Virus record (IMG/VR): IMGVR_UViG_2565956726_000013
Span: 1-30,505 of that record
DNA length: 30,505 nucleotides
Origin: a virus
Taxonomy: Duplodnaviria; Heunggongvirae; Uroviricota; Caudoviricetes
Reading direction: 5' to 3' (one strand)
Shown: piece by piece, positions 1,247 to 23,728 of the stretch
Numbering within the stretch: the stretch's first letter is position 1
Layout of the letters: each line of letters begins with the position of its first letter
Notes under the pieces: model-generated
What the model saw: only the letters and a program-made list of their open reading frames with translations
The model's database searches: none
Told to the model about the DNA's origin: nothing
Translations under genes and position numbers: made by a program

Positions 1247-1585
1247 TTAATTACAAAGGGCTGTAGCGGCATCAATCACCGGTGAAATTGAAATTTTAAC
1301 GCCGTCATACTCAGGGTCATCCTTCCATACGTCATCTAAGTTAGACCCCTCCAGCTTTCCTGATTTAACAGCATCTACCGCCATGCCATTCAGAGGATAT
1401 CTATCATCAGTTTTGATGTCATACACAAAAGCATAAGCACGGTTAACACATGATACCTTTGCCTTTTCAAAGGTTAGAGGCCACTTGTCACCATATGCAG
1501 CGCCGTCTATCTCTTTAAACTTCTCAGCGGCTATGGCTGAGGAAGAAAGTGCAATGCAGACTATCGCAAATATAAACTTTTTCAT
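1247..1585 (-). CDS. Small secreted protein with cleavable signal peptide, possibly DUF2511/YebY-like (moron between cI and int)
   Basis: 112 aa; N-terminus MKKFIFAIVCIALSSSAIAAE is a classic Sec signal peptide; strong RBS (AGGAG) overlapping the cI stop; motif RYPLNGMA recalled as DUF2511-like (from memory, unverified). Confidence 0.6.
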   Translation of the reverse strand: MKKFIFAIVCIALSSSAIAAEKFKEIDGAAYGDKWPLTFEKAKVSCVNRAYAFVYDIKTDDRYPLNGMAVDAVKSGKLEGSNLDDVWKDDPEYDGVKISISPVIDAATALCN

Positions 1586-4494: not shown

Positions 4495-6717
4495 TTGGCT
4501 GTTCAATTCGCTTATCCGTGGAACGTCCCACGGTCGGCAATCTCCAGCCCATACCTTACTTATGAGCAACAGCATCGCCGCGACCGTATGTTCGCGGCTT
4601 TGCTGCATGCAAAAAAGGTGCTTTCTCTCCAGCCCGACAGCGTGCGGTTAGATGTTTATCGCACTGCTGCGGTGCTGGAGCAAAATCAGGGTAGTCAACG
4701 AGCCAATGCATTTTTAATCAGCTTCTGCAAAAAGGCATTGCCGCGTCTTGAACTGGTCGCAAAAAAATACGAATGCGCTGGTATCAACAGCAAGGTATCA
4801 ACCGCTGTTTTTGGAAGTCATTTTGATACTCAGCAAATGCAATATCTGTCGTCACGCATGGTTAATATGGTCGCCAGATATAACCGTCTCCCGGACATGT
4901 CGCGCGCTGATGTTGACCTGTTGGCCGCTGATATTGCTAATTTCATTCGTGGTGAACTTGCCAACATTAATGACCACGGATTCGGCGAGCTTAAAACGCT
5001 GTACACCTGGTATATTCGTGCTGGCTTTATTTCCCTCCAATTCAACGTTATCCCACCACATTGGGAGCGGGTTGAAAAAAAATATGTCGGTGCGGATGAA
5101 ATCGCACCGGCTATCGCCAAAATGTTTAACGATGGGTGGTGGCGCGGTCGTTTGCGCCGTGTTGCAGCTACGTGGCGCGAACACCTGCAAATTGCAGTCG
5201 GCAACGTCAGTAAGAAAAAAAACACTTACGCGAGTAAAAACTGCGTGACTGACTGGCGTGAACAAAAGCGCCGCACTCGTGAATTTCTCAAAGGTCTGGA
5301 TCTCGAAGACGAAGACGGCAACCGTATCAGCCTGATTGAAAAATATGATGGCTCAGTTGCTAACCCTGCGATTCGCCGCTGTGAGCTCATGACCCGCATT
5401 CGTGGGTTTGAAAACATCTGTAATGAGCTCGGTTATGTCGGTGAGTTTTACACTCTAACCGCGCCGTCAAAATATCACGCCACGACTAAAGCCGGTTACC
5501 GTAACAGCAAATGGAGCGGTGCCAGCCCGGCTGACACGCAAAACTATCTAACCGGTATCTGGGCGCGTATCCGTGCCAAACTACATCGGGAAGATGTCCG
5601 TATTTTCGGTATTCGTGTCGCCGAGCCCCATCACGACGGCACTCCACACTGGCACATGCTGATGTTCATGCTGCCGGAAGATGTTGAATATGTTCGCTCC
5701 ATCGTCCGTAAATACGCATGGAAAGAAGACCGCCACGAACTGAAAAGCGATAAATCCAAAAAAGCACGTTTCCACGCCGAGTCCATTGACCCGGAGAAAG
5801 GCAGCGCAACCGGCTATGTTGCTAAATACATTTCAAAAAATATCGACGGTTATGCTCTCGATGGTGAAACCGATGATGAAAGCGGTGAGCTGCTGAAAGA
5901 GACAGCCCCCGCCGTTTCAGCATGGGCTGCGCGCTGGCACATCCGTCAGTTTCAGTTTATTGGTGGTGCGCCGGTGACGGTTTACCGTGAGTTGCGTCGC
6001 CTCGCTGATACCGAAACCGCGCACGGTCTGAGCGTTGAGTTTGCCGCCGTCCATGATGCCGCCGACGCTGGTGACTGGGCTGGTTATGTTAATGCTCAGG
6101 GTGGGCCGTTTGTCCGTCGCGATGATTTACAGGTGCGCACACTGTATGAACCGCGTACCGAGCTTAATCAGTACGGTGAGGAAACGGTATGTATTAAGGG
6201 GGTCTACGATTCCTCCATAGGTGCAGGAAGCCCGATTTTAACCCGGCTCACTCAGTGGAAGATTGTTCCGAAGCGTGCTGTTGATTTGGCCGTTGACCTT
6301 CAGGACGGCAAAGCCGTCCCTCGGAGTTCTGTCAATAACTGTACGGGAAGCGAAAGCGATCCACCGATACTGGATTTAACAAAACCACTGAGTCGGCGTG
6401 AAAGACGAGAATTGACCAACCGACTCAGGAAGCAAAAGCCAGCAGCACGGCGAAAATTCATCCACGGAACGGATGAGCAAAACGCAGCTATAGCTAAAAC
6501 TATCGACGAGATACATCTGACAACCGGCATTAATATCAGCCGGGGCGAAGCCCTGCACCTGATGGCCGGTGGTAAAAGTTGTTTTGATGGGAAATGGCTA
6601 CGCGGAACGGCCAAAGGAGAAATATTTTCCGCAGCACCATCGCATGAGGCTAAAGCTCGGAAAATCCTTAATCGTGTTGCGGCGATGGCTGAAGCATCAA
6701 AACCAAGACATGAGTAA
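4495..6717 (+). CDS. A: Replication initiation endonuclease, rolling-circle initiator (P2 gpA / 186 RepA family)
   Basis: 740 aa; N-terminus MAVQFAYPWNVPR parallels P2 A (MAVKASGRF...); conserved HUH-type motifs EPHHDGTPHWHMLMF and GYVAKYISKNIDGY (active-site tyrosine region). Apparent TTG start at 4495 with a G-rich RBS. Confidence 0.9.
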   Translation: MAVQFAYPWNVPRSAISSPYLTYEQQHRRDRMFAALLHAKKVLSLQPDSVRLDVYRTAAVLEQNQGSQRANAFLISFCKKALPRLELVAKKYECAGINSKVSTAVFGSHFDTQQMQYLSSRMVNMVARYNRLPDMSRADVDLLAADIANFIRGELANINDHGFGELKTLYTWYIRAGFISLQFNVIPPHWERVEKKYVGADEIAPAIAKMFNDGWWRGRLRRVAATWREHLQIAVGNVSKKKNTYASKNCVTDWREQKRRTREFLKGLDLEDEDGNRISLIEKYDGSVANPAIRRCELMTRIRGFENICNELGYVGEFYTLTAPSKYHATTKAGYRNSKWSGASPADTQNYLTGIWARIRAKLHREDVRIFGIRVAEPHHDGTPHWHMLMFMLPEDVEYVRSIVRKYAWKEDRHELKSDKSKKARFHAESIDPEKGSATGYVAKYISKNIDGYALDGETDDESGELLKETAPAVSAWAARWHIRQFQFIGGAPVTVYRELRRLADTETAHGLSVEFAAVHDAADAGDWAGYVNAQGGPFVRRDDLQVRTLYEPRTELNQYGEETVCIKGVYDSSIGAGSPILTRLTQWKIVPKRAVDLAVDLQDGKAVPRSSVNNCTGSESDPPILDLTKPLSRRERRELTNRLRKQKPAARRKFIHGTDEQNAAIAKTIDEIHLTTGINISRGEALHLMAGGKSCFDGKWLRGTAKGEIFSAAPSHEAKARKILNRVAAMAEASKPRHE

Positions 6718-6830: not shown

Positions 6831-7013
6831 ATGGTTGGCGAACATTTCAGCCGAACGCAGCAAAAGTGGGCTTGTGTGCAATTTATTGCCGAGGTATCTC
6901 TGATTGCAAACTGCAAGCCATCAGACTTAAAGCTCGCGCTCACTCTCATTGCAGACCTAGCAAACAGCGAAAATAACGAAACCGAAGATGATAATTTTTA
7001 TAAGGCTGATTAG
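6831..7013 (+). CDS. SOS-regulated small protein, Tum-like antirepressor N-terminal part (putative)
   Basis: 60-aa ORF directly downstream of the LexA box with a strong RBS; ends at TAG 7011-7013, in the same frame as and 3 nt before the DinI-like ORF. Confidence 0.5.
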   Translation: MVGEHFSRTQQKWACVQFIAEVSLIANCKPSDLKLALTLIADLANSENNETEDDNFYKAD

Positions 7014-7016
7014 ATT

Positions 7017-7250
7017 ATGAGAATCAATATCACGTTGGATAAAGAGCAAAAAATTAGTCAGACAACGTTGGATGCACTTGAGGCTGAGCTGTACCGCAAT
7101 CTTCAACCTATTTACCCAAAGACTGCTATCCGCATTCGTAAGGGCTCAGCTAATGGCGTTGAGCTAAGCGGTTTGAAACTGGACGAAGATAAAAAACGAG
7201 TGATGGAAATCATGCAGCAGGTATGGGAGGACGATAGCTGGCTGCATTAA
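7017..7250 (+). CDS. DinI-family protein (DinI-like C-terminal part of a Tum-type module)
   Basis: 77 aa; MRINITLDK...LDALEAELYRNLQ...DKKRVMEIMQQVWEDDSW aligns by eye with E. coli DinI (MRIEVTIAK...IDALAGELSRRIQ...DKQRISEILQETWESADDW). Confidence 0.75.
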   Translation: MRINITLDKEQKISQTTLDALEAELYRNLQPIYPKTAIRIRKGSANGVELSGLKLDEDKKRVMEIMQQVWEDDSWLH

Positions 7251-7253
7251 CAA

Positions 7254-7325
7254 ACGCCGTCGGTGCTGAATCTTGCTTTCAGTGCTGACGGGGTTGAACC
7301 ACTGGCTCCGCGAGACGTTAGTTCT
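7254..7325 (+). repeat. Intergenic ~70-bp repeat, copy 1 (hairpin-containing)
   Basis: AACGCCGTCGGTGCTGAATCTTGCTTTCAGTGCTGACGGGGTTGAAC...GCGAGACGTTAG; roughly 80 percent identical by eye to the copy at 7657-7728; directly follows a stop codon. Confidence 0.55.
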
Positions 7326-7445
7326 ACCTTTCAAACTTTCTCGATGTTTTATTGGTTACACACCGGTGAATAATGGGACGTTACCTTAGAGGATTTTATA
7401 GTGGCGCTTTGACAGCACTGAATAAAATTCATTGAGGGCGATAAT

Positions 7446-7655
7446 ATGCATCGACTACCGGGCGAAATTCCGCAGCACAAAACTAAAAGCATAAAACTGA
7501 TGGCTATCGTTCATCGCTTGCAGACGATAATGGTCAATGAGAATCTGACGCCAGCAGAATTAGTCGGGTGTGCAGAAGTGGTCAGAGATAACTACGGCAA
7601 GCTGGACGATATCAGCAGACCGACACATTACGCACCGCCACCACATCGACCATAG
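7446..7655 (+). CDS. Hypothetical protein
   Basis: 69-aa ORF with RBS GAGGG 7 nt upstream of ATG; flanked by the two intergenic repeat copies. Confidence 0.35.
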   Translation: MHRLPGEIPQHKTKSIKLMAIVHRLQTIMVNENLTPAELVGCAEVVRDNYGKLDDISRPTHYAPPPHRP

Positions 7656-7656
7656 A

Positions 7657-7728
7657 TAACGCCGCCGGAGCTGAAACTCGCTTTCAGGTCTGGCGGGGTT
7701 GAACAACGAGCTACGCGAGGCGTTAGCT
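7657..7728 (+). repeat. Intergenic ~70-bp repeat, copy 2
   Basis: AACGCCGCCGGAGCTGAAACTCGCTTTCAGGTCTGGCGGGGTTGAAC...GCGAGGCGTTAG; terminal AACGCC/GGCGTT inverted complement; directly follows a stop codon. Confidence 0.55.
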
Positions 7729-7788
7729 GGTCATAGCGTCGCAAATGCTTTAGCCGTCTGCTGGTTAAATAATTCGAGGTTTTTGGAC

Positions 7789-7983
7789 ATGCAAAATCCC
7801 CTTTCATCGAAAAAAGACCCGTTTGCCGATTGGGCAAAGAATCTGACTTTAATGGCTTTAAATAACGACCTGAGCTCTCGCGAGGTGGAAAGCTACACCG
7901 CAAAAATGGTCGGGCAGGCCAGTAAAGATGAGCTTTCAGTCGTTATCAAACACCTATTAAATCACATCAGAATGCGCAAATAA
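7789..7983 (+). CDS. Hypothetical protein
   Basis: Listed ORF starts at a TTG inside repeat copy 2; ATG at 7789 with GAGG 9 nt upstream is the more plausible start (64 aa). No motif recognised. Confidence 0.35.
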   Translation: MQNPLSSKKDPFADWAKNLTLMALNNDLSSREVESYTAKMVGQASKDELSVVIKHLLNHIRMRK

Positions 7984-7998
7984 GAGGAGCTATATAAT

Positions 7999-8100
7999 AT
8001 GTTATCTCTCGTTTATGAAAATCCGTGGACGACGGTTTTTCTGCTGATTGTTGCCAGTTGTTGTCTCAACAGTATTATTGGCGCATTGCGCAACAAGTGA
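7999..8100 (+). CDS. Small hydrophobic peptide (33 aa, single predicted TM helix)
   Basis: Strong RBS AAGAGGAG 9 nt upstream of ATG 7999; MLSLVYENPWTTVFLLIVASCCLNSIIGALRNK; stop at 8098-8100, then a rho-independent terminator. Below the 60-aa cutoff of the supplied ORF track. Confidence 0.4.
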   Translation: MLSLVYENPWTTVFLLIVASCCLNSIIGALRNK

Positions 8101-8122
8101 CCTCAATAAATCTGATTCAAAT

Positions 8123-8147
8123 CGGCACCAAAAATGCCGGTTTTTTT
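8123..8147 (+). terminator. Rho-independent terminator
   Basis: CGGCA-CCAAAAA-TGCCG stem-loop followed by GTTTTTTTA. Confidence 0.6.
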
Positions 8148-8307
8148 ATGCCATTTTTCCGCGAATTTCCCGTTTTTTAGCTATGCATGCAACAGGTGCA
8201 TGGTTTTGCATGCGTCAGGCTTGCCCGTTCAGGCCGTACGCCACCAGAGCTGGCGCGGAACCAGAGTGGTCATGCAACTGCATTAAAACCGCCCCATAAA
8301 GCGGGCA

Positions 8308-8326
8308 GGCGTGGCGGGGAAAGCAT
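8308..8326. other. cos-like cohesive-end site of the P2/186 type
   Basis: GGCGTGGCGGGGAAAGCAT resembles the 19-nt P2 cohesive end as I recall it (GGCGAGGCGGGGAAAGCAC; recalled, unverified); upstream 8170-8290 carries repeated ATGCAAC..TGCAT motifs that could be terminase-binding repeats. Confidence 0.55.
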
Positions 8327-8342
8327 TGCGCGCAGCACACAC

Positions 8343-8371
8343 TTGCAATTTGATATTTTTGGTGTAAAAAA
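8343..8371 (+). promoter_or_regulatory. Putative sigma70-type promoter for the cargo operon
   Basis: TTGCAA (8343-8348), 17-bp spacer, TAAAAA (8366-8371), about 65 bp upstream of the first cargo ORF; weak -10, low confidence. Confidence 0.25.
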
Positions 8372-8435
8372 TCGGTGTCAATGAGTAGAAGATGAAAAAA
8401 TAATAACCAAAGGTTACTAAATCAAGGATGTGCCG

Positions 8436-9254
8436 ATGAAAGTTAGCTATGACGTTGTCATCAAAAGTGGTGATCAAGAAGTTGATATGGAGTATGGCCT
8501 TGATACCCTCTCTGGAACGGCTGAGGTGACATGCATACTAGCAGAGGCAATACTCAGAAAAAAAATTATTAAGCGCCGCACTCATGTTAACCCTGCGCGA
8601 GCGGTTCTCAAACAAAGCTTTAAAAGTTCTTATGGTCAAAACTTCGACTTGATTGTTAATGAGCCGGAATTAGCTGCCGAATTAAAAAAAATGACCCGTT
8701 CTGTGTTCTCGGAAGTCATGGGGTATTTTATTTCTGAATCTCTATATCTGGAAACTAAGGAGCTATCTCCAAAAGCTGCAGGAATTATTGAGGAGCTTGA
8801 GGAAATTGAAGATGAACTTATTGATCGTATCAGACAACCTTTGGTAAGGATGCATAGGATAAATCTTCAAAAAAACTTTGATGTTGAACTTAACTATAAA
8901 AAACCTGCTGGCAAACAAAGAATAGCAAAGTTAGACACAATGACTGCTACAAACTTGACACAATCAAAAATAATGCCCGGTCAAGTTAATATTAACGCAG
9001 TTATTACTCGATTTAATGCGAGAACTGGAAATGGTAGGTTAGTTATCGAAGGTGAAGATGATACAGTAGCCTTTGGTTTTTACATGCCTTTAAAGGCTAT
9101 ACCCGCCGCTCAAAAAAGATTGGTCTCATTAAATTTACACAATAATAATGGCAGGCAAGATAACTACACATATCTAAAACTTACTGTTAGTAAAGTTGTA
9201 GTAAAAAGTGGTGATGTGGTGAAATATCTAATCCGTATGGTTGAAACTGTATGA
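8436..9254 (+). CDS. Cargo protein A of a two-gene cassette (unknown function, soluble)
   Basis: ATG 8436 with RBS AAGGA 7 nt upstream (listed ORF starts at GTG 8430); 272 aa; AT-rich unlike the phage backbone; no Walker A or other motif recognised; stop overlaps the start of the next ORF. Confidence 0.7.
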   Translation: MKVSYDVVIKSGDQEVDMEYGLDTLSGTAEVTCILAEAILRKKIIKRRTHVNPARAVLKQSFKSSYGQNFDLIVNEPELAAELKKMTRSVFSEVMGYFISESLYLETKELSPKAAGIIEELEEIEDELIDRIRQPLVRMHRINLQKNFDVELNYKKPAGKQRIAKLDTMTATNLTQSKIMPGQVNINAVITRFNARTGNGRLVIEGEDDTVAFGFYMPLKAIPAAQKRLVSLNLHNNNGRQDNYTYLKLTVSKVVVKSGDVVKYLIRMVETV

Positions 9255-9976
9255 GAAAGGTGTTGCTGTCTTCGGCTGGCGTGATTGTAGCTGTGTGCGC
9301 CTTGTATTACTTCAACTTCGGAGTAAACGGACATTTATCCAGCAAGACTGATGTTTGGGCGCAGTTTGGTGATTATTTGGGTGGTGTCGTCAACCCTATA
9401 CTTTCATTTATTACAATTTACCTCCTTATAAATTCAATAAAACTTCAAAGGGAGGCTAATTCCAGCCTGATCGATGAAGTAAAAAGGCAAGAATCTTTAG
9501 AAGAGTATAAAAAATTTGAAGTGAGATTTTTCCATTTGGTTGAATGTCAGGATTCTAACTTTGAAAGGTTTTGTGTTCAAGTTGGTGATGTTGATGGACA
9601 AACTGACGGGGTGGTCGAAGAATTTACAAGTGGTGCAGCCGTAACTTATCTTGAAGATAATATTGTAATTTTAGTTAAAGCCAAGGTAAAAAAAGAGGTA
9701 ATAACAACGTGGTTAAGTGAAGTGGATGCTAATGATTGCATTTTTTCAGTGGTGCGTCGCTTTTATTTGATTGTGAAGTTGATAGATAATTGCGGGGTTG
9801 AACGGGAAGATTATTATGAAACATTAGTTAACTTAACTGACATAAAAATAATATCTTTAGTTGCAATGGCTTGTACATACTACGAGTGGGATATCGTAAA
9901 GTATATCCATGACAGTAAAATACTTGAACGAGATGGAGTTAAAGAGTTTGTTTCGCAAATATCCACTCACGATTGA
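9251..9976 (+). CDS. Cargo protein B of a two-gene cassette (membrane protein with two N-terminal TM helices, unknown function)
   Basis: ATG 9251 overlaps the upstream TGA (ATGA coupling); 241 aa; hydrophobic segments VLLSSAGVIVAVCALYYFNF and GGVVNPILSFITIYLLINSI, then a roughly 175-aa soluble domain; AT-rich. Confidence 0.7.
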   Translation: MRKVLLSSAGVIVAVCALYYFNFGVNGHLSSKTDVWAQFGDYLGGVVNPILSFITIYLLINSIKLQREANSSLIDEVKRQESLEEYKKFEVRFFHLVECQDSNFERFCVQVGDVDGQTDGVVEEFTSGAAVTYLEDNIVILVKAKVKKEVITTWLSEVDANDCIFSVVRRFYLIVKLIDNCGVEREDYYETLVNLTDIKIISLVAMACTYYEWDIVKYIHDSKILERDGVKEFVSQISTHD

Positions 9977-9977
9977 G

Positions 9978-9996
9978 AGCCGCCATGCTGGCGGCT
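9978..9996. terminator. Palindromic hairpin between convergent genes (possible bidirectional terminator)
   Basis: AGCCGCCA-TGC-TGGCGGCT, 8-bp perfect stem, between the cargo operon end (9976) and the portal gene 3' end (10007); no flanking T-run. Confidence 0.35.
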
Positions 9997-10006
9997 AGAG
10001 TGGTGA

Positions 10007-11053
10007 TTATTCCGGGTTATCGAGGGTGTACTCTTTGAACCTGATGACCTCCATGCCGAGCCAGTCGTTTACCTCCCTGAACCTGTCCTGTAGCGGCGAC
10101 AGCTCATTGCGCACAAATACCTTTGCCACCTTCTCAACGTCACCGAGTGAACCGATATTCTCGGGCTTGCCGCCCATGAGCTGGAACGGCACGCGGTGCG
10201 CGTCCATCAGGTCGGCGGCGCTGGCTTTCTTAATGTTGAAAAAGTCATCCTTTGTGGCGACCTCGCTCAGTGGCACGATTTTGATGCCGTCCGGTTTTCC
10301 GCCGGGGGCGTAGAAAAACAGGTTCTTAAAGTTGCCGAGTCCCTTCGAGTTACGCATCGCCTCGCGCAGCGATTCGACGTCGGTCGCACTTTGCGCCGGG
10401 TCAGTCACATACATGATGTAGCCTGCGTGCGCGCCGTTCTGATAATACTTGCGGCGGAACAGCGTCGCGGATTCATTCAGCCAAGCGGAATTAAGCGCGC
10501 TGAGATATTCCGGCAAACCGTAAATCTCCTGATTAATGTCGGGCTCCAGCAGGTGAAACACGGTATCAGGCGCGAACTCGTGCGGCTGGGTGAAGTTTTC
10601 CACAAACCAGAAAATCGAATCGTCGACTCCGCGTCGGGTGTATTTGGCTGGCGAGGCCAGCAGTTTGATTAACTGGCCGGTGACGCTGTGGCGCTGCTCA
10701 AGAAAGGCGTTACCGAACACCAGATAATCGAGCGCAAAGCGGCTGAAATCCTGACGGGATAACAACGGGTGCGGAATGTAGGTGCTCGCGAGCACGTTAC
10801 GCTTAACATAAATTGGCGAGCTGTGATGCACGGCAGAGCGCAGGCTCTTTGCCAGCCCTGAGAAGCTGACCGGCGGCTCGTACCATTTGCCGTTACTGAT
10901 GCATTCGACGTAATCCAGAATGTCGCGCTTATCGAGTACCGGCACCGGCTCGCCGAAGGTGAACGCTGTCGTTTTTGGCGGTGCGCTGGCGGTCAGTTGT
11001 TGTGGTTTGCTGGCCTTTTGTGCGTTGGCTTTACGGGATTTTTGTTTACCCAT
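10007..11053 (-). CDS. Q: Portal protein (P2 gpQ family)
   Basis: 348 aa; size, position directly upstream of the large terminase on the same strand, and overall similarity to P2 Q as recalled. Confidence 0.9.
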   Translation of the reverse strand: MGKQKSRKANAQKASKPQQLTASAPPKTTAFTFGEPVPVLDKRDILDYVECISNGKWYEPPVSFSGLAKSLRSAVHHSSPIYVKRNVLASTYIPHPLLSRQDFSRFALDYLVFGNAFLEQRHSVTGQLIKLLASPAKYTRRGVDDSIFWFVENFTQPHEFAPDTVFHLLEPDINQEIYGLPEYLSALNSAWLNESATLFRRKYYQNGAHAGYIMYVTDPAQSATDVESLREAMRNSKGLGNFKNLFFYAPGGKPDGIKIVPLSEVATKDDFFNIKKASAADLMDAHRVPFQLMGGKPENIGSLGDVEKVAKVFVRNELSPLQDRFREVNDWLGMEVIRFKEYTLDNPE

Positions 11054-11054
11054 T

Positions 11055-12824
11055 TTAGTTGAACTCCAGAATAGATTTAGGCTGCATGCCGCTACCGGCA
11101 GAAAGCGGTTCGTTTAACAGGGCGTGCATGGTCGCCCATGCGATATCGGCGTGGCTGGCTTCCTCGGTGCGGCTGGCCTCATAGGTGGCGCTGCGCCCGC
11201 TGCTAGTCATGGTTTTGCGGATGGACATAAACGACTGCGTGACGTCGGTTGCTCCGGCGTCGTACTCCAGACAGCCACGGCGAATGGTGTCTTTCGCCTT
11301 GAGTACCATTGCGGTTTTCATTTCAGGTGTGTAACGGATGCCGCGTGCCGCCGGGTAAAATGAGCGCACCAGCTGGAACACGCCGAGACCGAGGCCGGTT
11401 GCGTCAATGCCGATGTATTCAACGTTGTATTTCTCGGTCAGCTTGCGGATGCCCTCTGCCTGTGCTGCAAAATCCATGCCCTTCCACTGGTGGCGCTCCA
11501 GCATGCGGAACTTGCCACCAGAGACCACCGGCGGCGCGAGCACGACGCACCCGGCACTGTCGCCGGTGTGTGACGGGTCGTAGCCAATCCAGACAGGACG
11601 AGAACCGAACGGATGGTCGGCGAACGGGGCAAAGTCCTCCCATTCCTCCATCACATCGACCATGCAGCGCTGCAGCTCCTCGAACGGGAATACCGACGCT
11701 TTATCGTCGACAAACTCGCACATAAACAGGTTCTTAAAGTCCTCATCACTGTTTTCGCGTTTGAGCTGGTCGAGGTCGAACAGGGTGCAGCCACCCGCAA
11801 GGGCGTCCTCAATGGTAACAATCTGCCGCCACTGGCCATCGTCGCAGAGCTGGCCACCGGCGAGCGCGCTGTGACTGATGTCGATTTCGATGCGGTCGGC
11901 AATCCGGCTGCGCCCCTTGTTGAACAGCTCGCCAGACCAGAAGGGGTAAGCGCCGTGCGCCAGCGTGGAAGGTGTCGAAAAATAGGTCGAGCGCAGGTGC
12001 TTTTGCGAGGCCATGCCCGAGGCGACTTTGCGCAGTTTCTGAAAATTCGGGATCCAGAATATTTCATCGACATACAGATCGCCGTTATGGCTCTGCGCGG
12101 TGTTGGAATTGGTACCGAGAAAAATCAGTTTTGCGCCGTTGTTACCGATGACAATCGGGTCGCCAGTCAGGTCAACGTCGACCAGTCGCGCAAACTGGAT
12201 GATGTATTCGCGGAACACGTAAGCCTGCGTTTTACTGGCTGATAAAAATATCTGGTTATGGCCGGTTTTGAGTGCGCGCAGCAGTGCCTCGCGGGAGAAA
12301 TAGAATGTCGCGCCAATCTGGCGGGATTTGAGAATGTCACGAATACGGTGCTCCAGTCCTGCGCGGTACCACTGCAACTGGTACTCGAAAGACTGATCGA
12401 AAAATAATTCCTCTAGTTTATCGATAGCCTCGTCGCTGAAAAAATTCTTTTTCGGCTTTTTGCGCTCCCCTTTGTTGCGGTTGGCGACGTTGGGGTTAAG
12501 GTCGGCTTCGTTGCCGGTCTGGCTGTAGCGGTTGACTCGCGCCAACCGTTCAATCTGCCGTCCGAGCAGGTCAATCTCTTTGAAATCACCCCCTGTCTTT
12601 TGCGGCTTGGCGATGAGCTGAATCAGCCTGGCCTCAAGGCTGCTTTCAACGCGGGAAATCGGCGCGATGCCGTCCCAGCCGTCGCGCTGCTTCCAGCTCT
12701 GCACGGTCGGGCGCTTGACCTGCAGCATTTCGGCAATCTGTGGCACGGAAAAACCCTGCCAGTAAAGCAGCGATGCCTGCCGTCGCGGGTCATGCAACAA
12801 GGTTGTATCTGTGGAAATGGTCAT
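11055..12824 (-). CDS. P: Terminase large (ATPase) subunit (P2 gpP family)
   Basis: 589 aa; position immediately upstream of Q with a 1-nt gap, divergent from the capsid operon. Confidence 0.9.
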   Translation of the reverse strand: MTISTDTTLLHDPRRQASLLYWQGFSVPQIAEMLQVKRPTVQSWKQRDGWDGIAPISRVESSLEARLIQLIAKPQKTGGDFKEIDLLGRQIERLARVNRYSQTGNEADLNPNVANRNKGERKKPKKNFFSDEAIDKLEELFFDQSFEYQLQWYRAGLEHRIRDILKSRQIGATFYFSREALLRALKTGHNQIFLSASKTQAYVFREYIIQFARLVDVDLTGDPIVIGNNGAKLIFLGTNSNTAQSHNGDLYVDEIFWIPNFQKLRKVASGMASQKHLRSTYFSTPSTLAHGAYPFWSGELFNKGRSRIADRIEIDISHSALAGGQLCDDGQWRQIVTIEDALAGGCTLFDLDQLKRENSDEDFKNLFMCEFVDDKASVFPFEELQRCMVDVMEEWEDFAPFADHPFGSRPVWIGYDPSHTGDSAGCVVLAPPVVSGGKFRMLERHQWKGMDFAAQAEGIRKLTEKYNVEYIGIDATGLGLGVFQLVRSFYPAARGIRYTPEMKTAMVLKAKDTIRRGCLEYDAGATDVTQSFMSIRKTMTSSGRSATYEASRTEEASHADIAWATMHALLNEPLSAGSGMQPKSILEFN

Positions 12825-20721: not shown

Positions 20722-21322
20722 CCGGCTATTACCCGTTGGCTCGTCGCCGCTGGAGGTTGCCGCCGCTGCCGCGCTCTCTGAGATTCAGCGTGTGCCGGTA
20801 CCGCTGCGCACTCTGTGGAACTGGCGCACCTGCCCGGTAAAACTGCTGCCGTATCTGGCGTGGGCGCTGTCGGTCGACAGGTGGGATGAGAAATGGCCGG
20901 AGGCGACAAAGCGTAGCGTCTGCGCGTCCTCGTTTTTCGTCCATCAGCACAAAGGCACCATCAGCGCATTGCGTCGGGTGGTTGAGCCGCTCGGCTTTCT
21001 GATTGAAGTGCGCGAGTGGTGGCAGCTCAACGAGGAGCCAGGCACATTCCGCCTCGTTGTCGGCGTGCTCGATAGCGGCATTACTGACGAAATGTATCAG
21101 GAACTTGAGCGCCTGATTGAAGACGCCAAACCGGCAAGTCGCCACCTGACCGGGCTGGCTATCAGTCTGAGCTCGACCGGCGAACTGTATGTCGGCGCGG
21201 GATGCTATCACGGCGACGCGCTGACTGTTTACCCCTACACCCCCGAGGAGATTGTCGTCGGCGGTGAATATTACCCGGCCTCGGCCATCCATTTGATTGA
21301 TAACCTGAGAGTGAACGCATGA
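20714..21322 (+). CDS. I: Baseplate/tail protein I
   Basis: 202 aa; overlaps the J stop; precedes the tail-fibre gene. Confidence 0.8.
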   Translation: MSDRLLPVGSSPLEVAAAAALSEIQRVPVPLRTLWNWRTCPVKLLPYLAWALSVDRWDEKWPEATKRSVCASSFFVHQHKGTISALRRVVEPLGFLIEVREWWQLNEEPGTFRLVVGVLDSGITDEMYQELERLIEDAKPASRHLTGLAISLSSTGELYVGAGCYHGDALTVYPYTPEEIVVGGEYYPASAIHLIDNLRVNA

Positions 21323-22275
21323 CCGCAAAATATTTTGCCATTCTGACCAATCAGGGCGCGGCGCGGCTGGCGAACGCGGCGGCACTCGGTACCAAACTCA
21401 ACCTGACGCAGATGGCCGTCGGTGATGCGAATGGTACGTTGCCGACCCCTGACCCGGCGCAGACGAAGCTCATTAACCAGAAACGCATCGCGCCGCTGAA
21501 CCTGCTGACCGTTGACCCGGCCAATACCAGTCAGATTATCGCGGAACAGATTATTCCCGAGAATGAAGGTGGTTTCTGGATCCGCGAGATTGGTCTCTAT
21601 GACGATGATGGTATTCTGATTGCCGTGGCGAACTGTCCGGAGACCTACAAGCCACAACTGCAGGAGGGAAGCGGTCGCACGCAGACCATTCGCATGATTC
21701 TGATTGTGTCGAGCACATCGGCAATCACCCTGAAAATCGACCCGGCAGTCGTGCTGGCAACGCGCCAGTATGTCGACGACAAGATTATCGAGGTGAAAGG
21801 ATATGCTGATGACCTGATGAAAAAACATGTTGAGGCCGCCAATCCACACAAGCAGTACCCGTTAATCGCTAATGCTCTGAAAGAAATGGTTGACGCGGGA
21901 CTGGCCGGCGACGTTCTTAAAAACCTTGGTTTGGGGGAATTGGCTCTGGCTGGCGCAACAACCGGCGCTATGTTGGTGAATGGGTATGTAGCAATTCCAT
22001 TAATTATTTCTGGCGTTCGGAGACCACTTATTATCCAGTGGGGAGTGGGGCAGTTTGGGGGAAGTCTGGGGGATGATGCGGGATATTTAAACAATTTCCC
22101 TTTCGCTTTTCCGTCGGCGTGCTACGTGATGGTTGCCAGCCACGTGGGGCATACACCTTCGGGTGCCGGAATACTATCTGCTTCCGCAATCACAAAAAGC
22201 GGCTTTCGTGGTTTTTCCAGCGTAGCGACTGCCGCAAATCCTGTATCGGGCTGTTATGTTGCTATAGGAGGGTGA
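21319..22275 (+). CDS. H: Tail fibre protein H (conserved N-terminal part fused to the currently expressed variable C-terminal part)
   Basis: 318 aa; N-terminus MTAKYFAILTNQGAARLANA...GGFWIREIGLYDDDGILIAVAN resembles the P2 H N-terminus; much shorter than P2 H; a hix-like site lies inside the gene at 21914-21939. Confidence 0.8.
   Translation: MTAKYFAILTNQGAARLANAAALGTKLNLTQMAVGDANGTLPTPDPAQTKLINQKRIAPLNLLTVDPANTSQIIAEQIIPENEGGFWIREIGLYDDDGILIAVANCPETYKPQLQEGSGRTQTIRMILIVSSTSAITLKIDPAVVLATRQYVDDKIIEVKGYADDLMKKHVEAANPHKQYPLIANALKEMVDAGLAGDVLKNLGLGELALAGATTGAMLVNGYVAIPLIISGVRRPLIIQWGVGQFGGSLGDDAGYLNNFPFAFPSACYVMVASHVGHTPSGAGILSASAITKSGFRGFSSVATAANPVSGCYVAIGG
21914..21939. other. hix/gix-like recombination site (left boundary of invertible segment)
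   Basis: TTCTTAAAAACCTTGGTTTGGGGGAA; 20 of 26 positions match the reverse complement of the site at 23711-23736; half-sites resemble hixL (TTCTTGAAAACC). Confidence 0.6.
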
Positions 22276-22276
22276 T

Positions 22277-22711
22277 GTGTTTTTTAGTCCATCTTTAAAT
22301 ATTTTTGTGAATCCTGCGCTTAAGGATGACTACATCAATGTAAATTCATGGCCAGATGATGCTGTTGAAGTTGATGAGCAGGTGTATATTGAGTTTTCCG
22401 GATTACCGCCGAAAGGAAAAATCCGTATCGCTGGGGAAAATGGTTTTCCTGCATGGTCTGAAATTCCACCACCAACGCATGAGGAACAGATTGCCGCAGC
22501 CGAATTGAAAAAACAGCAATTGATTAATCAGTCCAACGAATATATGAATACCAAGCAATGGCCTGGTAAAGCGGCTATTGGTCGTCTGAAAGGTGAGGAA
22601 CTGGCGCAATATAATTTGTGGCTGGATTATCTGGACGCACTGGAACTGGTTGATACCTCCAGTGCTCCAGATATTGAATGGCCTACGCCTCCGGCAGTTC
22701 AGGCCAGATGA
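22277..22711 (+). CDS. G: Tail fibre assembly protein (Tfa/gpG family)
   Basis: 144 aa; C-terminus LDYLDALELVDTSSAPDIEWPTPP is a Tfa-type signature; apparent GTG start. Confidence 0.75.
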   Translation: MFFSPSLNIFVNPALKDDYINVNSWPDDAVEVDEQVYIEFSGLPPKGKIRIAGENGFPAWSEIPPPTHEEQIAAAELKKQQLINQSNEYMNTKQWPGKAAIGRLKGEELAQYNLWLDYLDALELVDTSSAPDIEWPTPPAVQAR

Positions 22712-23276
22712 CATCCGGCGCGGTGCTCGTATCTGTTGCCGTCACCGCGTCAATGTAATCAAGCACGGCGTTAAGCCGGGTGGTTTCTGCCTGCGTCAGC
22801 TTCCGCCCGGCCTGTAATTTCAGCTGAATCAGACTGATGGAAGCCATTGCAGCATCAATCAGTGACTGGCGCTGTGCTTCTGCCGCTTCTACTGCGGCAC
22901 CGTGTTGTGCCTCAGTATCTGTCACCCATTTCTCACCATCCCATTTATCGTATGGCGTTAACGGTGAAAGCGTGACATAACCGTCTTTGATGGCACCGAT
23001 ATAACCCACTGTAACAGCTGCGCCATTTTCAGTTGAGTAAACGGTCTCATTGCGATGGTCTTCTTCATGGCTCCATCCCTTACCCGTAAATACTGCCACT
23101 TTTCCCGGAATGTTTTCGCCAGGGTCAATACCAGTGGAACAGGCGGGCATACTTACGCCAGTATTAATATATTCATCAGACCAGCCCGTATACTCAGATG
23201 TTTCAGCATCATAATAAAAACAACGCATATCGCCCGGCACTGTAGCCAGCCCATTTTCATCAAAAACAGGTTTCAT
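22683..23276 (-). CDS. Alternative tail fibre assembly protein (Tfa', inverted orientation)
   Basis: 197 aa; C-terminus LDYIDAVTATDTSTAPDVIWPELP parallels G; 3' end overlaps G convergently, as for U/U' in the Mu G segment. Confidence 0.7.
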   Translation of the reverse strand: MKPVFDENGLATVPGDMRCFYYDAETSEYTGWSDEYINTGVSMPACSTGIDPGENIPGKVAVFTGKGWSHEEDHRNETVYSTENGAAVTVGYIGAIKDGYVTLSPLTPYDKWDGEKWVTDTEAQHGAAVEAAEAQRQSLIDAAMASISLIQLKLQAGRKLTQAETTRLNAVLDYIDAVTATDTSTAPDVIWPELPEA

Positions 23277-23728
23277 TATTTAGCCCTCACCACAAAGTTA
23301 AATGCAATATTTCGCGGTCTGACAGCAACAAAATTCACACCATCACCCACAGAGTTACTGGTGAAATTAAATCGTGAAAATCCTGGCTGATTTCCGGCGA
23401 TGCCATCATGAAAGTTAATTGCGTGTCCCGCACCTCCGCCTATATTCCCGGCAAACTGAGAAAAGTTTGTAGCTTCCTGCCAGCTTAATAATTCGCGACC
23501 ACCATCGGCACCTCGCCCGTCATCCCAGATACGAATGAAATCACCGCGGGCTTCAGGTAATACCAGTGAAGGAAACACTTTCGCCAGCACAGGGTAATCA
23601 GAGGCAGAAAATTTCGCCCCGTTGAACTTCAAAAACACCATACTGGACCAGCTGTCGATTACAGTATTTGGCATTGCAGCGGACGGCCAGAAGAACGGAA
23701 CGCCAATAGCTGGAGCACCTTCTCCCAA
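23276..23728 (-). CDS. Alternative tail fibre C-terminal (receptor-binding) cassette, silent in this orientation
   Basis: About 150 codons with no ATG or RBS of their own; the 5' end coincides with the hix-like site; in frame with the H constant region after inversion (see findings). Confidence 0.6.
   Translation of the reverse strand: MGEGAPAIGVPFFWPSAAMPNTVIDSWSSMVFLKFNGAKFSASDYPVLAKVFPSLVLPEARGDFIRIWDDGRGADGGRELLSWQEATNFSQFAGNIGGGAGHAINFHDGIAGNQPGFSRFNFTSNSVGDGVNFVAVRPRNIAFNFVVRAK

Follow-up and report, generated by a model that had tools for sequence, protein, structure and literature searches.

The stretch of DNA considered here, positions 1 to 30,505 of IMG/VR record IMGVR_UViG_2565956726_000013 (the window, 30,505 nucleotides (nt) in all), is from end to end a nearly complete 186-like prophage of the P2 family, as judged from its open reading frames (ORFs) and their annotation. 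Between its cohesive-end site (cos) and its portal gene lie two overlapping genes, A (8436-9254, plus strand) and B (9251-9976, plus strand), which encode a soluble protein of 272 amino acids (aa) and an AbiC-like membrane protein of 241 aa, respectively. On balance, we lean toward the view that the prophage carries this cassette as anti-phage cargo, in the form of a two-component system related to the AbiC/AbiP abortive-infection (Abi) proteins. An earlier note, made from the nucleotide sequence alone, had proposed that the pair is a candidate novel defense or exclusion system. Reading A and B as such a module is supported as a hypothesis, and because B proves to be a remote member of the AbiC/putAbiC family the word “defense” is strengthened and the word “novel” is weakened. 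The cargo hotspot, the Abi family and the pair itself, catalogued as hypothetical, were already known; what is new is a two-gene variant within the AbiC family, not a new kind of system.

Both ORFs described in the earlier note are real, as is the ATGA stop/start overlap at 9251-9254 (plus strand) that couples them, which can be read directly in the sequence. They are not chance ORFs, since they belong to large conserved families (111 clusters for A and 71 for B at 90% identity) and give confident AlphaFold2 (AF2) models. The start of gene A is the ATG at 8436 and not the in-frame GTG at 8430, as its homologues begin MK-VSYD.... In direct searches of Pfam, NCBIfam and PADLOC nothing was found above threshold for A or B, and PHROGs returned only families of unknown function (phrog_8999 for B). 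The earlier impression that neither protein resembles a P2/186 morphogenetic or lysis protein agrees with the lack of any match to virion, packaging or lysis families in Pfam, NCBIfam and PHROGs.

More sensitive comparisons place B in a named family. A profile built from 68 members of the family retrieved, out of 1.84 billion representative proteins, 6173 at E ≤ 1e-3, with roughly 90 clusters (50% identity) at E ≤ 1e-30. Nine of ten distant matches that were sampled (E about 1e-18) bear the putAbiC domain PF16872, at 37-93 bits. When the B family was aligned with 16 PF16872-type proteins using hhalign, the match reached 99.93% (E 2.4e-35, 230 columns) and joined residues 3-235 of B to 19-264 of 294, which is essentially all of B. 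A tryptophan-led motif in the second transmembrane (TM) helix, W-x-QFGDY-x-GG-x-x-NP, is invariant or nearly so in both alignments, and the two groups also have the patterns FE..FF and R.FY.I.K.ID...Y..L in common. Because the match is full-length and the TM2 motif and patterns are common to both, B can be placed in the AbiC superfamily as a short and divergent member; its homology to the putAbiC/AbiC family, although remote, extends over the full length. One database submitter has labeled a variant of B “Phage abortive infection protein”.

The architecture of B is consistent with this assignment. Its AF2 model (pLDDT 87.3) consists of a helix at residues 2-24, a very long helix at 33-104 and a helical domain at 127-237. 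The first TM helix covers residues about 4-24 (nt 9260-9322) according to both hydropathy and the model, and the second has its hydrophobic residues at about 42-64 and runs into the long helix; the conserved motif (residues 36-49, nt 9356-9397) marks its beginning. The two N-terminal TM helices of the earlier note are therefore borne out by hydropathy and AF2, and its placing of the 175-aa domain in the cytoplasm would follow from the distribution of lysine and arginine residues, which suggests a topology with both termini inside. By the same counts the TM2 motif would lie at the outer leaflet. The polar and helix-breaking residues D41, N48 and P49 of TM2 are extremely conserved, which argues that the membrane part of B is functional and not a mere anchor; such conservation is equally compatible with leakage of ions, with a part in assembly and with sensing at the envelope.

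Entry exclusion is a common mode of action of membrane proteins encoded by prophages, Sie and Imm being examples, and B might do likewise, with its motif at the periplasmic end of TM2 blocking DNA entry or sensing injection, the cell surviving, and A serving as a regulator or chaperone. That the most conserved part of B and putAbiC is a membrane-embedded motif, apparently at the outer leaflet, is what such superinfection exclusion at the envelope would lead one to expect. However, an entry block needs neither a large cytoplasmic domain nor an obligate OB-fold partner, and lactococcal AbiC acts after DNA replication, which it leaves unaffected, by reducing production of the major capsid protein (2026 review, PMC13064643). 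We give envelope exclusion an outside chance. A different membrane role was suggested by a weak PADLOC match of residues 28-84 (window 9332-9502) to ZorB3, a MotB-like protein (E 0.002), and such a match to the TM region was seen in 56 of 68 relatives of B (best 3.2e-5). B was rejected as a Zorya ZorB/MotB stator, as the match covers the TM region only, there is no OmpA-like/peptidoglycan-binding domain and no ZorA/MotA-like neighbor, and the conserved Asp41 would sit at the opposite membrane face under the predicted topology. The ZorB3 match is probably compositional, and PADLOC scans across the A and B families otherwise gave scattered single matches.

Protein A is modeled with high confidence as two domains (pLDDT 90.9, pTM 0.84). 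Of these, the alpha/beta domain at the N terminus (residues 1-175, nt 8436-8960) is similar to DUF7946, and the one at the C terminus (residues about 180-272, nt 8973-9251), which is OB/cold-shock-like, is similar to DUF7947. In the window copy the matches to DUF7946 (PF25678) and DUF7947 (PF25679) amount to 12.8 and 14.5 bits against a Pfam cut-off of 27, in the right N-to-C order. At E ≤ 1, DUF7947 is found in 30 of 41 relatives of A and DUF7946 in 16 of 41, with best E-values of 5.6e-5 and 2.1e-6, respectively, and some database relatives carry a precomputed PF25678 match. Among the matches listed in a protein database search with the A profile there were only close relatives. Judged by these profile matches A would be a divergent DUF7946+DUF7947 protein, having the same domain order as proteins that bear both, although it scores below the cut-off. 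No paper on DUF7946 or DUF7947 was found in the library searched.

In the AF2 model the C-terminal 90 residues of A form a five-stranded barrel with a helix between strands 3 and 4 (beta1-3/helix/beta4-5), so that the predicted structure of this domain is an OB/cold-shock-like fold. The only high-probability Foldseek matches of A were cold-shock domains (CspA, YB-1) and the OB domains of ExoVII and AspRS, and nothing was found by Foldseek at E ≤ 0.001. For the N-terminal domain (1-175) Foldseek gave no significant structural neighbor; M16 peptidase halves were considered as relatives and dismissed, their Foldseek probability being 0.1-0.4. A sequence search of the PDB with the A and B family profiles gave no match. 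Most of the invariant residues of A are in the C-terminal domain (R192, G198, G200, R201, F213, N233 and N237, with K263 and Y264 nearly so), and D17, M18, G27, S65 and H140 are invariant in the N-terminal domain, where an SYG motif is near-invariant. Nucleic-acid binding is hinted at by basic and aromatic residues that are conserved on strands 1-3 and 5, but these are only suggestive. The spacing of the segment ITRFNxxTGNGRL...TVAFGF is, we presume from reading the sequence, like that of the CspA strands bearing its RNA-binding aromatic residues. The KSGD tetrapeptide near both ends of A, which the earlier note had taken for a motif, is not conserved in the family.

The linkage of the two genes is strict. 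Related loci, searched for in part with an 11-sequence alignment, were drawn from complete genomes, from metagenomes via distant B homologues, from a Klebsiella phage and from IMG/VR. Wherever A is full-length (39 of 39 loci), gene B lies directly 3' of A on the same strand, overlapping or abutting it. The identity matrices of A and B are correlated (r=0.92 over 30 non-identical pairs), and 0 of 2000 permutations in a Mantel test reach this value. A and B thus co-diverge and travel as one unit between P2-like phages, another type of phage and chromosomal islands. In 15 IMG/VR loci and in Dryocola the pair occupies the same position beside a P2-type portal with only 60-100% identity, and the Klebsiella phage that also bears it is of another type. 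No P2 portal is found near the pair in Pseudomonas, Aeromonas, Bordetella, Comamonas or Achromobacter. Its neighbors in such non-phage islands include a resolvase, an HNH endonuclease, and a D12 methyltransferase with a HerA-like ATPase.

Two of these islands share a further gene set. Directly downstream of the pair, Achromobacter (locus L014, 9910-14367) and Comamonas (locus L013, 2460-6917) have the same set of genes, which encode a D12 adenine methyltransferase, a HerA-like ATPase (DUF87) and a protein of 467 aa without a Pfam match. This set may be a second defense module traveling with the A/B pair.

A partner like A was found for none of the four putAbiC-bearing proteins sampled, two of which are solo and one of which has an unrelated upstream gene. 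A therefore appears to mark a sub-branch of the superfamily, on a sample that is small. On a metagenome contig (L022, 2-2105), a 281-aa putAbiC-type gene is overlapped by an unrelated upstream gene for a 433-aa protein with abundant hydrophobic stretches in its C-terminal part. AbiC-like proteins may thus have gained partners more than once.

Such a compact coupled layout with the soluble gene first, strictly co-inherited and carried by mobile elements, is also what an addiction or toxin-antitoxin-like pair would look like, with B as a membrane toxin and A as its antitoxin, stabilizing the prophage without a dedicated anti-phage role. However, typical labile antitoxins do not look like A, which exceeds B in size and has two conserved domains that are well folded, and since AbiC-type relatives without a partner exist in the sample, the membrane protein on its own is tolerated in their branch. 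The hotspot in which the pair resides is moreover enriched for defense genes and not for stability genes (PMC9122126). We think this alternative very unlikely, and it overlaps with the anti-phage reading in that many toxin-antitoxin systems are themselves Abi systems.

The location and mobility of the cassette agree with its being cargo. It is bounded on the left by the 186-type cos GGCGTGGCGGGGAAAGCAT (8308-8326, no strand assigned), a backbone element read in the sequence, and on the right by the portal gene (P2 Q/186 W; 10007-11053, minus strand), whose RefSeq protein WP_000517961.1 is identical; Pfam Phage_portal is matched by the portal gene in sibling loci. RefSeq annotation and the shared cos agree with the earlier placement of the pair between these two landmarks and convergent with the portal gene. 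The sequence GGCGTGGCGGGGAAAGCAT is common to 186-type Eganvirus genomes, including the Yersinia/186-type Eganvirus genome L017, and phage records begin or end there; we take this 19-mer to be the cohesive end of 186.

The L017 genome, which has no gene between cos and portal, served as the reference for the limits of the cassette. By blastn, homology to L017 stops at window position 8333 and restarts at 9978, so the foreign DNA is exactly 8334-9977 (1644 bp, plus strand), comprising a leader, gene A and gene B. It stands in place of a GC-rich non-coding spacer of about 140 nt in the 186-type phage. Its base composition is foreign as well, as the earlier note had observed: GC is 36-38% across the pair (0.38, 0.38 and 0.36 in the segments covering 8501-10000) versus 55-61% in the adjacent late genes (0.55-0.61 over 10001-12000 and over most of the late region).

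In 186-type phage the slot is empty, and elsewhere it holds either a different gene, as in a close relative, or this cassette, which is rare, in keeping with the earlier description of the pair as foreign, variable cargo. Only 14 of 5426 complete E. coli genomes carry the cassette, although 68 carry the cos flank, and a variant pair (56% and 53% identical for A and B) in four further genomes brings the count to 18/5426. In E. coli 222 (locus L016, 3747-4730) the cos-portal slot is filled by a single, different hypothetical gene of 327 aa on the minus strand, in a prophage that is otherwise similar, with an identical portal protein and flanking DNA about 95% identical. Comparison of the interval across relatives also agrees with the expectation that the pair is not conserved in all 186-like phages. 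E. coli O141:H4 P13-6 (locus L001) has an annotated prophage that is almost identical; it has the same A/B cassette, and a Ser/Thr protein kinase and other genes stand left of cos, on the gpA side (6322-8789 of L001). The same side in the window (6831-8300) has a DinI-like gene at 7017-7250 and three small ORFs without known function. As the cassettes are identical and the genes left of cos differ, the two sides of cos have been swapped independently.

Position between cos and portal is the only support for an accessory function in packaging or morphogenesis. Phages of the 186 type lack the pair and package normally, and among 5426 E. coli genomes no more than 18 have it; it occurs in non-phage islands, is of foreign composition and has no match among virion or packaging families. 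That functional relatives do without it, and that it is also found outside phages, effectively refutes this idea, to which we assign next to no probability.

The gpA-cos-gpQ region of P2-like phages is a known hotspot, whose 1650 gene arrangements include many that are anti-phage (Rousset et al. 2022, PMC9122126), a status confirmed by a 2026 study (PMC13586616). The cassette has the properties of hotspot cargo, as it lies between gpA and gpQ beside cos and the content of its slot differs among related prophages. In supplementary file 6 of the Rousset study, WP_000868916 and WP_001233394 are exactly proteins A and B, entered as “hypothetical + hypothetical”, and canonical putAbiC genes are also among the hotspot cargo there. 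Like other cargo of the hotspot (old, tin and the systems of Rousset 2022), the cassette is AT-rich and belongs to a region of rapid gene replacement. It stands on the portal side of cos, in a slot that is empty in 186-type phage, whereas P2 has old and tin on the gpA side, and its proteins are unrelated to those of the other cargo.

Not all cargo of this kind acts on phages, as about half of what was assayed from the hotspot was inactive on the phage panels used (PMC9122126). The pair might accordingly be a lysogenic-conversion “moron” concerned with membrane stress, colonization or interbacterial competition. A and B are annotated as hypothetical everywhere, and the Pseudomonas pair lies near a Rap1a-family gene, Rap1a being an immunity family of the type VI secretion system. 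Nevertheless, B is homologous to an experimentally defined Abi family, the pair recurs in the cos-portal slot even where the portals are only 60% identical, and its neighbors elsewhere are of restriction type; a role unconnected with phages seems to us distinctly unlikely.

Comparison with known systems shows what is shared and what is particular to the A/B pair. AbiC (Prf, from L. lactis pTN20) and other PF16872 proteins resemble B in their N-terminal two-helix membrane hairpin, TM2 motif, long stalk helix, C-terminal helical domain with the ...RxFYxIxKxID...Y..L...L... pattern, and carriage on mobile elements. They are longer than B (about 270-345 versus 241 aa), and AbiC is a single-gene system, whereas B has the overlapping upstream partner A in 39 of 39 loci. 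AbiC has two TM helices and AbiP one, and they have been grouped structurally, with extra-membrane domains that superimpose (PMC13064643). AbiP of L. lactis prefers RNA over single-stranded DNA, and its membrane anchor and nucleic-acid binding are both required (PMC13064643). Its likeness to the A/B pair, drawn from the description in that review and not from sequence, is that a membrane anchor is combined with a nucleic-acid-binding module, the latter being likely in the case of A/B. AbiP is, however, a single polypeptide with one TM helix, whereas in A/B the OB/cold-shock-like module is on a separate protein with an additional N-terminal domain.

In RexAB of phage lambda and in Kiwa, both of them two-gene systems borne by prophages or islands, a membrane protein has a cytoplasmic partner. 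The resemblance to A/B is a functional analogy only, as no sequence or fold relationship was detected and PADLOC gave no Kiwa match. RexB is a 4-TM protein, whereas B has two TM helices and a large cytoplasmic domain.

If the cassette is an Abi-type system, it could work as follows. Protein A would reside in the cytoplasm, where its OB domain (R192, R201, F213, F215, K263 and Y264) might bind nucleic acid or another cue arising during infection by a competing phage. A would then contact the cytoplasmic helical domain of B, and B, as a two-helix hairpin with both termini inside, would act at the membrane, with phage development being halted late. The TM2 motif, the most conserved element of the whole superfamily, is part of this hairpin. 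B may act by ion leak or depolarization or, as the RNA binding of AbiP suggests, by tethering and interference with phage RNA. The infected lysogen would yield no progeny, and the clonal hosts of the prophage would be protected. Homology, fold, linkage, mobility and location of A and B are observations; that A senses a cue and contacts B, whose TM hairpin executes the block, is what we infer from them. We offer only tentatively, as something that may well prove wrong, the more specific proposal that A/B is a hitherto unrecognized two-component AbiC/AbiP branch in which a separate protein A, made up of a structurally novel N-terminal domain (DUF7946) and a cold-shock-like OB fold, senses infection and gates the TM hairpin of B.

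In favor of an anti-phage function we count the homology of B to AbiC, the OB/cold-shock-like fold of A, the pairing in 39 of 39 loci, the co-divergence of the two proteins, the hotspot location, the rare occupancy of the slot and the defense-type neighbors. Several observations weigh against it. PF16872 itself is not matched by B or by 36 members of its family, even at E ≤ 1, and A falls below the gathering thresholds of both DUF7946 and DUF7947. PADLOC-DB v2.0.0 has no model for A or B, giving no hit for the former and only the ZorB match in the TM region for the latter. Membership of the AbiC family does not guarantee activity, as an AbiC-like lactococcal gene, 38% identical, gave no protection in one screen (PMC11381338). 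The effector step of B is drawn by analogy with AbiC; the 2026 review lists no mechanism, trigger or structure for AbiC and no mechanism for AbiP (PMC13064643). In the literature we found no experiment on the pair or on any member of its subfamily. There was no sign of the pair being assayed in Rousset 2022, Vassallo 2022 or DefensePredictor, the accessions of A and B are absent from the supplements of the latter two studies, and a full-text search of the literature returned no mention of the two WP accessions.

A sigma-70-like promoter candidate, GTGTCA-18-AATAAT, lies in the leader of the cassette at 8375-8404 (plus strand; 9/12 positions in a consensus scan), and it is only a consensus match. 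A Shine-Dalgarno sequence, AAGGA, is found at 8424-8428 (plus strand), 7 nt 5' of the ATG of gene A. Between the convergent genes B and portal, where the earlier note had seen a “perfect palindrome” at 9978-9996, there is indeed an inverted repeat, but it forms a hairpin with an 8-bp stem and a 3-nt loop (9978-9985/9989-9996; no strand assigned). It belongs to the backbone and not to the cargo, because it is also present in the cassette-free 186-type phage. The hairpin is probably the terminator of the portal operon and may also serve B, although it has no T-run and a terminator scan made no call there.

The remainder of the prophage runs from the integrase at 173-1222 through the CI repressor gene and gpA at 4495-6717 to cos, and then portal and terminase (11055-12824, minus strand, from RefSeq annotation of a sibling prophage), capsid, lysis and tail genes. 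Between the integrase and CI there is a DUF2511/YebY-like gene (1247-1585, minus strand). The integrase-to-primase region has been described in a recent study as a minor cargo hotspot of P2. The tail-fiber gene (21319-22275) is followed by an assembly chaperone (22277-22711), and next to them, in opposite orientation (minus strand), are a second Caudo_TAP chaperone (22683-23276) and a 150-aa ORF (23276-23728). GC dips to 45-50% in this region, which looks like an alternative or invertible tail-fiber cassette.

How AbiC-type proteins work has been a question since AbiC was described in 1992, and PF16872 is widespread. The sub-branch with an obligate OB/cold-shock-like soluble partner is sizeable, with the roughly 90 clusters noted above, and spans Gamma- and Betaproteobacteria. 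It is missed by current detection, as A and B pass no Pfam gathering threshold and correspond to no PADLOC system. Should the pair prove inactive, it would be one of the many unexplained cargo sets of the P2 hotspot. If it is active, an entry now listed as “hypothetical + hypothetical” would become one more type of system in the catalog of that hotspot, and a family-specific pair of hidden Markov models could be used for defense annotation. With a sensor that can be separated, the effector mechanism of AbiC, whether membrane leak or RNA interference, could then be put to the test in E. coli. If the proposal of a dedicated sensor branch is also true, the separable sensor and membrane module would provide a genetic handle on AbiC-type proteins in E. 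coli.

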